IMG/VR virus record: IMGVR_UViG_3300028914_000001
Location: 1-29,488 of that record
Length of the DNA: 29,488 nucleotides
Reading direction: 5' to 3' (one strand)
DNA from: a virus
Lineage: Duplodnaviria > Heunggongvirae > Uroviricota > Caudoviricetes
The position numbers and the translations under genes were made by a program. Shown in pieces: positions 1 through 26,437 of this stretch (position 1 is the first letter of the stretch; each line of letters begins with the position of its first letter). The notes below the pieces were generated by a model that worked only from the letters and a program-made list of their open reading frames with translations, had not been told where the DNA came from and did no database searches.

Positions 1-6
1 TCCGTT

Positions 7-185
7 GATGGCAGACCTTGGGTCTGCCATCTTTTTTGCCTCGCCCCGTGGTTTCAACATAGGTTATCACCCTCCGCCAGCGGCTGCCAGTCCCCTGCTG
101 CCTCGTTCCGCTGGTTGCTGGTAAGCAAAAGGTTACAATATTTTTTGCAATAAGCCTTGACAAAACAGTTTTAATTATCTATATT
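7..185 (+). repeat. Junction 1: terminator + site A + promoter
   Basis: Hairpin 7-31; site A 53-72 (core CATAGG); TTGACA 157, TATATT 180. Confidence 0.9.
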
Positions 186-5175: not shown

Positions 5176-5187
5176 CCCCTCGTTGTT

Positions 5188-5346
5188 ATCCCCCATCCGC
5201 AAGGGTGGGGGATTTATTTTTTGTTTTCCCCCGATATCCAACATAGGTTATCACCCTTCTGCCGCTGGAACCAGGGGAAGTCGGGGTTCACCAGGATTTA
5301 ATTTTTTATATTTTTTCTTGACAAACTGAATTTAATTAAGTATATT
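5188..5346 (+). repeat. Junction 9: terminator + site A + promoter
   Basis: GCAA-loop hairpin 5188-5213; site A 5237-5256 (CATAGG); TTGACA 5318, TATATT 5341. Confidence 0.9.
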
Positions 5347-12257: not shown

Positions 12258-12449
12258 TGCCGTGAGGAAAATAGGCACTCACACAGCCTAGCCACAACAC
12301 ACTTTCCTCACGGCATTTTTTATTTTTATTTTTGATTTCCAACTTGGGTTATCACCCTTTCCCCTTCGCCAGCAGGAAGAAGCTGGGGATAAAATTTTTA
12401 AAATTAATTTGATTTACCTATTGACAAACCAAATCCAATTAGCTATATT
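12258..12449 (+). repeat. Junction 17: long-loop terminator + site A + promoter
   Basis: 13-bp stem 12258-12270/12303-12315; site A 12338-12357 (CTTGGG); TTGACA 12421, TATATT 12444. Confidence 0.9.
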
Positions 12450-20555: not shown

Positions 20556-20583
20556 GGGTTTACAACACTTTACAAAAAATCTA

Positions 20584-20612
20584 TTGACAATATGGATTTA
20601 ATTATCTATATT
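20584..20612 (+). promoter_or_regulatory. Orphan module promoter (no terminator or site A upstream)
   Basis: TTGACA-17 bp (TTTAATTA)-TATATT. Confidence 0.85.
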
Positions 20613-20638
20613 ATCAATAGAAACCATGGAGGCATACA

Positions 20639-20872: not shown

Positions 20873-20896
20873 GAAAACCTAATACCTCCGTTGTTC

Positions 20897-21069
20897 GCCC
20901 CCTCGCAAGAGGGGGCTTCTCTTTATCCCACCTTGGGTTTCAACATGGGTTATCACCCTTTCACTGGAAACCTCCTGTCCCATCCCGGTGTCCATCCCAG
21001 CCTGTAACGAAATCTTTACACAAAAAATGATGGAAACCTATTGACAAAACCATTTTAATTAGGTATATT
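20897..21069 (+). repeat. Junction 26: terminator + site A + site B + promoter
   Basis: GCAA-loop hairpin 20897-20916; site A 20939-20958 (CATGGG); site B 21003-21020; TTGACA 21041, TATATT 21064. Confidence 0.9.
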
Positions 21070-21096
21070 ATATATAGAAACAACGGAGATAAAACC

Positions 21097-21450
21097 ATGA
21101 AAGATTACTTTAAGGGTCAAACCATCAACATCAGCAATAAGGTTCGTAAGAACCTTGTTGTATCCATCAGCAACATCATCCTTGCAAAGCGTGATAAGCT
21201 TCCGCCTATCTGCATCGACAAGATTTTCCAACATGGCAAGCGTGGCAAGTATGTAGTGCGTGTTAGCCATGGCGACAAGGGCGACTATCAGGATATCGTC
21301 GGCTACTACGATACCATTACAAGCGACTCGCAGGTTCTCGAACACATCAATGATAGCCTCCCCCGTGTCCTCAAAGGCCGTTGGTTCATGGTTAAGGCAG
21401 GTCGTGATGGTAAGCGTTTCAACACTAATCAGTGGGTTAAACCGCAATAG
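21097..21450 (+). CDS. Basic hypothetical protein, 117 aa
   Basis: TAGAAACAACGGAG leader. Confidence 0.8.
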   Translation: MKDYFKGQTINISNKVRKNLVVSISNIILAKRDKLPPICIDKIFQHGKRGKYVVRVSHGDKGDYQDIVGYYDTITSDSQVLEHINDSLPRVLKGRWFMVKAGRDGKRFNTNQWVKPQ

Positions 21451-23299: not shown

Positions 23300-23328
23300 T
23301 TGGCAAATCTCTTTTAATTAGGTATATT
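23300..23328 (+). promoter_or_regulatory. Orphan module promoter (no terminator or site A upstream)
   Basis: TTGGCA-17 bp (TTTAATTA)-TATATT; site-B-like AGTAA-N8-TTACA at 23273-23290. Confidence 0.8.
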
Positions 23329-23748: not shown

Positions 23749-24264
23749 ATGATTAAGGTAGAAAATTGGAAAGGATATGGTGGCAGGGAAAACTCTATTT
23801 GGGTTTCCATCGACACTAAGACATTCAACAAATATAATTTTTATAATACTGACTCTCATGTATCCTTTGGGAACCGCATGAGCGAATACCTCCGTCATGG
23901 TGATTACCACGCCCATGACGAATACATCGTGCCTCATGTAAAGAGTTGCGGTGCTGACTGCGCTGGGTTCACCGTGCAGTTCGATGTTAAGCCCACAAAG
24001 AAGTTGATGGAGCAGGTTCGCCAAGTGTTCATTCAGGTCATTGGTCCCGATGACCCCGACTTCATAGCGCCTATCCCCCATGTAAGGGAGATTATCAAGT
24101 GGACTCCCAAAATGAAGTGCATCCGTGTTGGCGACAGGTGGTCTGACGATAAGGATTGCAAGGTGAACCCCAAAGGAATGATTAAGTTCCGTGGCAAGAA
24201 GTATATCGTCAAGAATGTAAACACCGATGCTGACCCATCCATCGCCCTCGTTCCTGTTAAATAA
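23749..24264 (+). CDS. Hypothetical protein, 171 aa
   Basis: TAAGGGGG SD. Confidence 0.8.
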   Translation: MIKVENWKGYGGRENSIWVSIDTKTFNKYNFYNTDSHVSFGNRMSEYLRHGDYHAHDEYIVPHVKSCGADCAGFTVQFDVKPTKKLMEQVRQVFIQVIGPDDPDFIAPIPHVREIIKWTPKMKCIRVGDRWSDDKDCKVNPKGMIKFRGKKYIVKNVNTDADPSIALVPVK

Positions 24265-24281
24265 TTTTTTCTTTTTTTCTC

Positions 24282-24310
24282 TTGACAATTTGGATTTAAT
24301 TATCTATATT
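24282..24310 (+). promoter_or_regulatory. Orphan module promoter (no terminator or site A upstream)
   Basis: TTGACA-17 bp (TTTAATTA)-TATATT, 17 nt after the upstream stop. Confidence 0.85.
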
Positions 24311-24336
24311 GTTAAGAGAAACAAAGGAGATACCAA

Positions 24337-24921
24337 ATGGCAGACCTAACCAAATTCGTAAATTTCTTCAAGTCGAAAGTCCCTGCATTCATGAAAACTT
24401 TTGGCTACAACTCCAAGCTCGAAGAGGGCGAAAAGACCCTTATCAATGGTTTCATCGACCATGTTGCCGACGATATTGTCTACTCGGAAATCGTCACTAA
24501 AAAGGAACTTGCTGAAACCCTCATTCTCAAAGGGATTGACAGAGAGTTCGTAAACAAGCATCTCGACACCCTAATCAAACTTGAAGACCTCTACTTCACG
24601 ATTGAAACCTATGTCAATTCCACCAAGTATGTCAACTACTGTGAGAACACAATTAGGACATGGTATCGTCAACACAAAGGCAAACTGAACCGTACTTACA
24701 CCGAAATCAAGCACGATTACTTTGATGACTATAACGGATGTTGGACTATTGATGCTTGGCGTAATCCTGACGATGACGAAGACGGGGTCGCTCCCATTGA
24801 AGTATATCTTGATGGCTCGCTCAAAATCCGAGATGAAAATGCGTTCTACGATGCTATGCTAGATTTCGGAATTATAGAAGCCATTGAAGAAACTTTAAAA
24901 GAAATCAAGTCTGCCAAATAA
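24337..24921 (+). CDS. Hypothetical protein, 194 aa
   Basis: AGAAACAAAGGAG leader; acidic C-terminal half. Confidence 0.8.
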   Translation: MADLTKFVNFFKSKVPAFMKTFGYNSKLEEGEKTLINGFIDHVADDIVYSEIVTKKELAETLILKGIDREFVNKHLDTLIKLEDLYFTIETYVNSTKYVNYCENTIRTWYRQHKGKLNRTYTEIKHDYFDDYNGCWTIDAWRNPDDDEDGVAPIEVYLDGSLKIRDENAFYDAMLDFGIIEAIEETLKEIKSAK

Positions 24922-24934
24922 CGGAGGTAAAGTT

Positions 24935-25429
24935 ATGCAAAGTGCAGAAGCCGCCAACAACCAAAAGACCAAAGTCCTTGACTACATCAGAAAGCACGGG
25001 AAAATCACTTCCCTCGATGCTTTCTCCAAGCTCCACATTACCCGTCTGTCAGCCTGTATCTTCAACCTGAGACAAGATGGGTATAACATCAAGACCCGTG
25101 AGCTTGAAGTGACCACCGAATACGGCAAGACCACCTTTGCCGAATACTACCTCTCCCGTGGCCGTCGCCCGAAGCCGAAGATTTCCTCCGTCACCTATCA
25201 GCCGACCGAAACCACAAAGGTTCGTGTGACTGTCCGTCGCACCTCTGTCGATGACCGGGATGCCATCAATGCTTCACTCAAAGGCACGACCCGTAAGGAA
25301 ATCGTAAACCGTTTGAAAACCCTTGCTGGCAAAGCCGCAAAGAAAACCCCAAAGAAGAAAGCTGTTAGGAAAGCCCCCATCAAAAGGAAGTCCGACCAGT
25401 TAGAACTCTTCCCAGAACTCTATAAGTAA
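24935..25429 (+). CDS. HTH_39-like DNA-binding protein with basic tail and C-terminal QLELF motif, 164 aa
   Basis: QKTKVLDYIRKHGKITSLDAF..LHITRLSACIFNLRQDGYNI helix-turn-helix pattern; K-rich tail. Confidence 0.75.
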   Translation: MQSAEAANNQKTKVLDYIRKHGKITSLDAFSKLHITRLSACIFNLRQDGYNIKTRELEVTTEYGKTTFAEYYLSRGRRPKPKISSVTYQPTETTKVRVTVRRTSVDDRDAINASLKGTTRKEIVNRLKTLAGKAAKKTPKKKAVRKAPIKRKSDQLELFPELYK

Positions 25430-25433
25430 TTTC

Positions 25434-25637
25434 CCCCCGACGGGCATGGTTTGTGGTCATAAGCAAAGCTCCGTTGTTTCTAGCCCGTCGGGGGCTTTTC
25501 TTTTATCCCCATATCAGTTTCAACTTAGGTTATCACCCCTACGCCTTCGACGCCAGTCCCCGTCGTAGCCTGTAACGAAATCTTTACACAAAAAGTGATG
25601 GAAACCCCTTGACTGAAACCATTTAATTAGGTATATT
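25434..25637 (+). repeat. Junction 28: long-loop terminator + site A + site B + promoter
   Basis: 12-bp stem 25434-25445/25483-25494; site A 25519-25538 (CTTAGG); site B 25571-25588; TTGACT 25609, TATATT 25632. Confidence 0.9.
25446..25482 (+). ncRNA. Candidate 3'UTR antisense RNA (loop complementary to module leader, SD and AUG)
   Basis: Loop reverse complement = TAGAAACAACGGAG-CTTTGCTT-ATGACCACAAACCAT; the first 14 nt equal 21075-21088 exactly. Confidence 0.45.
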
Positions 25638-25669
25638 TATAGCATAGAAACAACAACAGGAGATATACT

Positions 25670-26137
25670 ATGAGTTTCCATGGCGATGAAGATTGGCTCG
25701 ATATGAATGGGCTTCTCACAAACGAAAACACCGAACAGTACAAGGACGACATCAAGGAATTGCTGTCCAAGTATTACAAGTGGGATGAAGACTGCGAGGA
25801 GTTCGAAGATGACCACCCCGACACCTACCACAAGTACGAAATCCGTGCAGAGTTCGAAGATGAATGCTGTGATGACACCTTCAAGACCATCCTGCATATT
25901 GAGGTATGGCTCCCGACTGACGATGATGCAAAGGAACTTGCCGACATCATCGACGGCGAGGTTGTAGGTGGTCTCAACGAAGGTTGCCCCACTTTCCGCA
26001 TAACTTACAGAAACGAAATCTACATCAAGGCTGAAAACAAAGAGGAAGCCGAATCAATTTTCAGAAACATGAGCCGTTCCAAACTCGAAGAATGTTCTGA
26101 ATTTGTCGAAATCGTAAGCAACGAAAAGGAGGACTAA
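25670..26137 (+). CDS. Very acidic hypothetical protein, 155 aa
   Basis: TAGAAACAACAACAGGAG leader. Confidence 0.8.
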   Translation: MSFHGDEDWLDMNGLLTNENTEQYKDDIKELLSKYYKWDEDCEEFEDDHPDTYHKYEIRAEFEDECCDDTFKTILHIEVWLPTDDDAKELADIIDGEVVGGLNEGCPTFRITYRNEIYIKAENKEEAESIFRNMSRSKLEECSEFVEIVSNEKED

Positions 26138-26140
26138 CCC

Positions 26141-26437
26141 ATGTCTATGTTTGTCATCATCGAACACTCGACCGAAACCCCTATCCAAAAAGCAGGGCTT
26201 AACTATCCGTTCAAAACCTATGACGGAACCGTGGAAGCCCTTATCCGCACCCTCAAAGACAACAATGAACTCTATTGCGATGGAACCAATGGGGGTTACG
26301 AAATCCATGTTCCCGACAGCGATGAAAACCTCGAACACGAAACCGAAATCCGTGATGCGATGAAAAGCAGCCACTCACTCGTTGTAGACCATGGCGACTA
26401 CGATGTGCGTTATGACATCGTTGAACTCCTGCCATAA
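26141..26437 (+). CDS. Acidic hypothetical protein, 98 aa
   Basis: GGAGG SD inside the upstream gene end. Confidence 0.8.
   Translation: MSMFVIIEHSTETPIQKAGLNYPFKTYDGTVEALIRTLKDNNELYCDGTNGGYEIHVPDSDENLEHETEIRDAMKSSHSLVVDHGDYDVRYDIVELLP

Follow-up and report, generated by a model that had tools for sequence, protein, structure and literature searches.

A terminator loop complementary to early-gene leaders in a giant rumen phage is a candidate antisense brake on early translation

Results

The hairpin closes a two-gene operon in an array of promoter-leader cassettes

The stretch of DNA analyzed here (the window; 29,488 nt) forms the leading 29.5 kb of the 422,150-bp record of an uncultured phage, a record that has terminal repeats; the DNA and RNA sequencing runs that contain it are bovine and sheep gut metagenomes. 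Small genes in a single orientation pack both ends of this genome (~417-422 kb and 1-32 kb). Each gene group is preceded by a near-identical sigma-70-type promoter (TTGACA, a spacer with TTTAATTA, then TATATT); the leader that follows usually begins TAGAAACAAC and terminates in GGAG, and hairpin terminators separate one group from the next. The genome ends hold ~37 such promoter-leader units with terminators between them, the genes being small orphans, and all promoters of the region point in the + direction. Genome-wide, the 10-mer TAGAAACAAC occurs in eight forward copies, every one of them in a cassette leader, and in a single reversed copy, which is the terminator loop described below; chance is excluded as the source of this distribution.

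The layout resembles that of the PeSL cassettes of T4-type phages, which are small orphan genes with a strong sigma-70-like promoter, a Shine-Dalgarno (SD) site and a stem-loop terminator, arranged in arrays and shuffled by recombination at the conserved regulatory parts (PMC2839356, PMC4122927), and the window repeats the same combination of promoter and terminator. PeSLs have not been described with antisense to their own leaders, whereas four terminators carry such motifs here. Cassette order is shuffled among the relatives of this phage, and neighboring cassettes differ. Contigs from a related sheep-gut strain (run X15) join cassettes at leader ends (24329 to 25567, and 25656 to 24267); these joints, by which whole cassettes are replaced or reordered, fit recombination at the conserved promoter-leader parts.

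One of these units is an operon of two genes on the + strand. Its sigma-70-type promoter, TTGACA-17-TATATT at 24282-24310, carries an 'ATC' spacer variant that precedes the operon in all relatives, and its own leader and SD, GAGAAACAAAGGAG, occupy 24316-24329. The product of the first gene (24337-24921), 194 aa in length, could be assigned to no known family or fold. Its structure model is confident (pLDDT 89.5) and comprises five helices followed by a four-stranded sheet and two helices; it found no informative match in the PDB or the AlphaFold clusters, and Pfam, PHROG and Atlas searches gave no lead. Distant relatives were seen for its C-terminal beta domain only, among many small proteins. 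The second gene (24935-25429) encodes a winged-helix HTH_39 protein with a Lys-rich tail (PF14090, E 2.7e-17), and orthologues are present in all relatives. The hairpin begins 4 nt past the TAA of this gene, directly after it as the first-pass annotation of the sequence had placed it. Between the end of the gene preceding the operon (24264) and the operon promoter, positions 24264-24282 contain neither a terminator nor a conserved post-terminator site, and transcripts from the promoter at 23300 probably end at the same hairpin. A distant blastn search of 24300-26200 against annotated phage records returned no match.

A hairpin of intrinsic-terminator type whose loop is antisense to a leader

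The terminator stem consists of a 5' arm, CCCCCGACGGGC, at 25434-25445 and a 3' arm, GCCCGTCGGGGG, at 25483-25494 (+ strand). A repeat search recovered the two arms as 12-nt segments that are 100% complementary and 37 nt apart, which verifies the perfect 12-bp stem and 37-nt loop of the first-pass annotation. Eleven of the stem pairs are G-C. The U-tract CTTTTCTTTTAT (25495-25506) adjoins the stem directly and completes the anatomy of an intrinsic terminator; both stem and adjoining U-tract are retained in all 14 hairpin variants that we collected. The + strand RNA folds at -32.5 kcal/mol (z = -3.99), and none of 200 shuffled sequences did as well. Intrinsic terminator loops are usually 3-10 nt long. 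Those of other terminators in the window measure 3-8 nt, against 37 nt here and 23-45 nt in relatives, and a loop of this size is unusual enough for an intrinsic terminator that the efficiency of termination is uncertain. Another terminator with a large loop is found at 12258-12315. Its 13-bp stem (TGCCGTGAGGAAA / TTTCCTCACGGCA) pairs perfectly, the loop consists of 32 nt rich in C and A, and an extended run of T follows; no antisense to the leader is present in this loop.

Read on the opposite strand, the loop (25446-25482) is TAGAAACAACGGAG-CTTTGCTT-ATGACCACAAACCAT, that is, a leader with its SD (14 nt), an 8-nt spacer, and ATG with four further codons, so the earlier reading of a complete translation initiation region is borne out by the sequence. 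On the + strand the loop has two parts. Its 5' part (25446-25468) is antisense to the spacer, the ATG and the A/C-rich codons and is not conserved in relatives; the conserved core is the 14-mer CTCCGTTGTTTCTA at 25469-25482, antisense to leader and SD, which we refer to as the anti-leader. The complement of the 14-mer, TAGAAACAACGGAG, recurs exactly at 21075-21088 (+), as reported in the first pass, and the partial leader matches given there at 1403, 14293, 16998 and 24316 are likewise correct. Within the window the loop is the sole opposite-strand copy of the 14-mer with two or fewer mismatches, the other opposite-strand match (44-57) having three. Allowing up to three mismatches, the window holds 15 matches where 2.8 are expected, and 0 of 100 shuffles reached 15.

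The anti-leader is mostly unpaired in 13 of the 14 predicted folds (mean probability 0.62-0.89). A search of Rfam found no family match for the hairpin; the best hits (E 0.13 and 0.18) were to unrelated eukaryotic families and fell far below gathering scores. Assembled RNA contigs from run X6 cover 24335-25351 and resume at 25657, with none placed on 25388-25656; contigs cannot show RNA ends, and these speak neither for nor against an RNA of the hairpin.

Selection maintains the stem and the anti-leader, on the + strand RNA

The HTH protein and the 194-aa protein served as queries to gather relatives, which came from many assemblies of rumen and gut origin and all form one narrow clade sharing one leader consensus. 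A hairpin of the same design stood behind the two-gene operon wherever downstream DNA was available, yielding 14 distinct versions. Pairing is kept in 168 of 168 stem cells, with compensatory changes in 5 of the 12 pairs, and exceeds that of all slid controls. Six of the stem cells are U-G wobbles on the + strand, which become A-C mismatches on the opposite strand; the wobbles fit + strand RNA only, and the selected structure is therefore the + strand RNA.

The two parts of the loop have fared differently. The 5' part ranges from 9 to 31 nt, cannot be aligned between lineages and differs even where the HTH genes are nearly identical (L025 and L026, for example), and the ATG on the reverse complement is missing from four versions. 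The 14-mer shows just two deviations, a single-base change in L020/L021 and a change of its last base in L034. At third codon positions the neighboring gene has a tree length of 2.59 substitutions per site, which puts the probability that 14 neutral sites change once or not at all at ~6e-15. With a hypervariable 5' loop beside a nearly invariant 14-mer, selection acts on the generic anti-leader and not on a captured start of one cassette. In origin the loop was most probably an initiation region copied in inverted orientation, of which only the leader half is maintained. Across the hairpin versions, no conserved ORF was found in the loop on either strand.

A 17-mer scan of IMG/VR recovered the four known relatives and two chance matches within genes (L007 and L009). 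When deeper relatives were sought with a profile, the matches were a single full-length 50% cluster and some fragments, and none came from a phage whose leader consensus differs; of two genomic contexts retrieved for its matches, one (L054) was unrelated and the other (L055) belonged to the same clade.

The anti-leader is complementary to many cassette leaders

The first-pass annotation had interpreted the hairpin as a 3'UTR-derived antisense RNA apparently captured from a cassette 5' end, which could act on one cognate cassette elsewhere or in a competitor phage and, more weakly, on the common leader of many cassettes. Part of this stands: the hairpin is a real + strand structure of terminator type, and its antisense to leader and SD is under selection. 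The idea that the captured cassette start is the main functional part, in contrast, is not supported, its half of the loop being hypervariable and its ATG absent in four lineages. The observation that no gene begins MTTNH holds across the 422-kb genome, and a genome-wide search for the cognate target turned up neither a further copy of ATGACCACAAACCAT nor a match to the 37-mer at nine or fewer substitutions. The specific target should thus be dropped in favor of the common leader, which, since the conserved part is the 14-nt generic anti-leader, is the best-supported target.

For three genomes (this one, G001 and G002), we matched the 14-mer against every one of the 37 cassette leaders. Stretches of at least 9 contiguous complementary bases were present in 16, 25 and 24 of the 37 leaders, respectively. 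The operon's own leader, which in this genome offers 8 + 4 complementary nucleotides around one internal mismatch, ranked 10th, 18th and 13th of 37 and was never the best match; the leader of the next cassette ranked 8th, 29th and 27th. The best predicted target is the leader and SD at 21075-21088 (+), in the cassette at 21041 with its gene start at 21097, which is complementary at 14 of 14 positions (~-17 kcal/mol when corrected for accessibility). Dimer folding cannot represent pairing by a closed hairpin loop and forced the stem open, so we discarded it and used an accessibility-plus-duplex calculation instead. Accessibility-corrected energies predicted in this way were at or below -8 kcal/mol for 19 of the 37 leaders, whereas shuffled anti-leaders reached that level for a mean of 0.4 leaders and a maximum of 3. 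The loop presents complementarity to ribosome-binding sites on transcripts of the same phage. In relatives, the contiguous leader form seen most often is TAGAAACAAAGGAG, in which one position would oppose G and A when paired with the constant anti-leader. Where one unchanging seed faces many targets that differ slightly, a regulator of multiple targets is indicated, and a freely co-evolving partner is argued against.

Related motifs precede other terminators

Three shorter anti-leader motifs lie at other + strand terminators. The motif CTCCGTTGTT (20886-20895) is directly 5' of the terminator at 20897-20916, and CCCCTCGTTGTTA (5176-5188) sits between a stop codon and the terminator at 5189-5212. 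The latter has a CCTC form that matches the GAGG-type leaders (AACAACGAGG) of nearby cassettes, and one relative retains it unaltered, although the gene there has only 74% identity and the adjoining hairpin has changed. The fourth element, CCTCCGTTGAT, is complete at 422038-422048, with its end part at positions 1-7 of the window, and it abuts and runs 1 nt into the terminator at 7-31. The terminal duplicate, only ~110 bp in length (window 1-110, genome 422041-422150), starts within this motif and takes in the same terminator.

Across the three genomes, 9 of the 18 sense copies of the 8-mers CTCCGTTG or CCTCGTTG fall no more than ~30 nt before a terminator U-tract, a zone that makes up ~3% of the sequence. 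These 8-mers are found within genes as well, so that short copies alone are weak evidence. A generic test of the longest complement between 48 terminator regions and all leaders showed no separation of antisense from control orientations (means 8.6 and 8.2-8.5). The enrichment at terminators is limited to the specific anti-SD-plus-GTTG motifs.

Two independent samples (L032 and L033) have a promoter of consensus type, TTGACA-17-TATATT (L032 3597-3625), downstream of the HTH stop codon. It precedes the anti-leader hairpin by ~100 nt with no ORF between, which predicts a standalone transcript of ~160 nt that ends at this hairpin. The promoter is part of a 140-nt insertion (L032 3590-3790; also in L033), along with a small hairpin and a decayed repeat of the final ~30 nt or so of the HTH gene. 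The insertion looks like a collapsed duplicate of the operon that left a promoter-plus-hairpin unit.

Discussion

A candidate regulon-wide brake

We propose that the hairpin is an RNA brake or shut-off on early-gene translation, acting regulon-wide through pairing with the cassette leaders, and on the strength of the sequence comparisons we put this at slightly better than even odds (about 0.55). The hairpin would serve as the intrinsic terminator of a conserved two-gene early operon, its enlarged loop exposing the 14-mer beside the 3' arm. The carrier of the anti-leader could be the 3' end of the operon mRNA, a stable 3'-terminal fragment shielded by the 12-bp stem or, in one lineage, a short transcript from a promoter of its own. 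Such an RNA would pair with the leaders of many early mRNAs, that of its own operon included, and mask their ribosome-binding sites, lowering their translation; the duplex of anti-leader and leader may also be a substrate for a double-strand RNase. We infer that the RNA accumulates, that it pairs with leaders in vivo and that the effect on translation is negative. Against the proposal, a single transcription unit would have to titrate mRNAs from ~20 strong promoters, the most frequent leader form in relatives meets the anti-leader with a G-A mismatch, the large loop makes termination efficiency uncertain, and the relatives, being of one clade, all share one leader consensus.

Several known systems share parts of this design. 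In the icaR mRNA of Staphylococcus aureus, an anti-SD motif in the 3'UTR pairs with the 5'UTR, blocking initiation and exposing the RNA to RNase III cleavage (PMC3868564). In both cases the mRNA for a transcriptional regulator carries near its 3' end a pyrimidine-rich motif complementary to an SD region. The icaR motif, however, lies in a long 3'UTR and acts on its own mRNA only, whereas the motif described here is in a terminator loop, reaches the very 5' end of the leader, and is matched by the leaders of about half of the ~37 cassettes as well as or better than by its own. The c4 RNA of phages P1 and P7 is an antisense RNA that pairs around a ribosome-binding site and blocks translation (Citron and Schuster 1990, as summarized in PMC12197685). 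Like the hairpin, it is phage-encoded, not transcribed opposite its target, and presents its complementary sequences in loops. It differs in being an RNA of 77 nt dedicated to a single target (ant) within the immunity circuit of a temperate phage, whereas here a terminator loop would be aimed at a leader common to many giant-phage early genes. In the Rfam search the hairpin resembled neither c4 nor any other curated RNA family.

CpxQ, SroC and DapZ exemplify cellular sRNAs that derive from 3'UTRs and share the terminator of their mRNA. Other sRNAs, such as RsaE, LhrC and the mycobacterial B11/6C, act on multiple targets through anti-SD loops (e.g. PMC2790875, PMC10470900). With both groups the hairpin has in common a conserved, single-stranded pyrimidine seed for the SD regions of many mRNAs: the 14-mer is conserved, accessible in predicted folds and contained within its own terminator. 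It lies within the last few tens of nucleotides before the U-tract, so a 3' fragment would retain the seed. Those sRNAs are cellular and bind short G-rich SD motifs, whereas the seed here is phage-encoded, has a length of 14 nt and corresponds to a leader specific to the phage, over a span that runs from about +1 to the SD inclusive. The role proposed, inactivation of many early phage mRNAs through the GGAG of their SD, is closest to that of RegB of T4, an S1-activated protein endoribonuclease that cuts GGAG in early mRNAs (PMC1702504, PMC3014915). RegB is a protein nuclease; the agent here would be a base-pairing RNA. In the literature searched we found no published description of such a phage element.

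Alternative explanations

The closest competitor is autoregulation in cis as in icaR, by which the 3' loop would pair mainly with the operon's own 5' leader and SD and so limit how much of the 194-aa protein and, through coupling, of the regulator is made. The operon leaders of L014 and of L020/L021 show 13 nt of perfect complementarity, and the sole internal substitution of the anti-leader, from G to T in L020, matches that lineage's own leader AGAAACAAAGGAG; the window, L013, L025 and L026, which have the same leader with an unchanged seed, look like the uncompensated intermediate. Because the L020 change fits pairing with the own leader, we retain autoregulation as the leading alternative. 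In several lineages, moreover, the variable loop half resembles the start of operon gene 1 (ATG, then ACA AC), and icaR, the precedent, is likewise a repressor gene (PMC3868564). L020 is nevertheless the single possible compensatory event. The own leader drifts freely, with insertions of 3-12 nt, against a constant anti-leader; it stands only 10th to 18th among the 37 leaders; and in L034, the most distant relative, it keeps ~6 complementary bases while the anti-leader is retained. We consider autoregulation unlikely as the main function. A second cis model, in which the anti-leader pairs with the leader of the next cassette ~170 nt downstream in read-through RNA, so that the gene is translated from its own promoter only, draws on the 10-nt exact matches that three of the four elements (5176, 20886 and 25469) have in the next-cassette leader of this genome. 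It is made quite improbable by G001 and G002, in which the next leader ranks 29 and 27 of 37 with a longest match of 5 nt and the anti-leader is unchanged, and by the shuffling of cassette order among relatives.

Strict conservation of a sequence, rather than of a pairing partner, could also mark a signal in the RNA for a protein or nuclease, affecting processing, stability or termination, with the leader complementarity being historical and unused for pairing. The 14-mer abuts the 3' arm of the terminator, and the operon encodes a nucleic-acid-binding protein with a basic tail. The three shorter motifs, however, share only the anti-SD/anti-ACAAC core and follow the local SD type (CTCC with GGAG, CCTC with GAGG), as is predicted by pairing and not by a protein site, and we regard this reading as quite unlikely. 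That the loop is a functionless relic, an inverted fragment of a cassette 5' end resembling the leader by chance or through gene conversion, would account for the full initiation-region layout of the reverse complement in most lineages, which suggests an inverted-copy origin. It is very unlikely given that the neutral expectation is rejected (~6e-15) and that the flanking loop bases decay freely; an inverted homology of 14 bp is, we infer, also too short for conversion by the ~37 direct leader copies. Hardly credible is a coding role for the loop, whether as the initiation region of a minus-strand mini-gene or as a small + strand ORF. Leader, SD, spacer and ATG are correctly ordered on the minus strand, and a 40-codon + strand ORF begins at 25446. 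Yet the minus strand has no promoter, its ATG is absent in four versions, its peptides (13 to 51 aa) are unrelated, and the U-G wobbles misfit a minus-strand RNA; on the + strand, most lineages lack the ATG, and the reading frame through the anti-leader varies.

A possible wider network

The regulon-wide brake may have a broader setting, which we offer tentatively and hold to be doubtful as it stands: giant rumen phages may carry a distributed antisense network in their mobile early cassettes, with seeds at 3' ends matched to the leader class, that shuts off early translation across the regulon. CTCC-type seeds would serve GGAG leaders and CCTC-type seeds GAGG leaders, from positions in a terminator loop or just 5' of the hairpin, with the hairpin that follows the regulator gene as a master copy directed at the consensus leader. 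As the leader is common across the clade, such a network would also block the early genes of superinfecting relatives. The molecular detail of early-gene switch-off in large lytic phages is known for few models only, RegB in T4 being one. A leader-directed RNA seed acting on dozens of promoter-leader cassettes would, if real, be a simple and evolvable regulon-wide switch, and would explain why leaders are uniform among otherwise unrelated, shuffled cassettes. Antisense and anti-SD regulation are known principles; the present data suggest their use as a regulon-wide RNA switch in giant phages.

The window holds further candidate regulatory sites. Two promoters are of the 'ATC' type, the regulator operon's among them, and both form imperfect palindromes (25 nt at 24271-24326 and 18 nt at 20580-20621) that are centered on TTTAATT and extend across the -35 box and the transcription start; a regulator that binds as a dimer, for instance the HTH_39 protein encoded next to the first of them, may use them as an operator. 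In the intergenic DNA after the hairpin, the block TTCAACTTAGGTTATCACCCC (25519-25539) is conserved in relatives, and a conserved inverted repeat, TGTAA..TTACA, followed by CAAAAAG, lies at 25572-25596 upstream of the next -35 box. Both blocks are candidate protein-binding sites.
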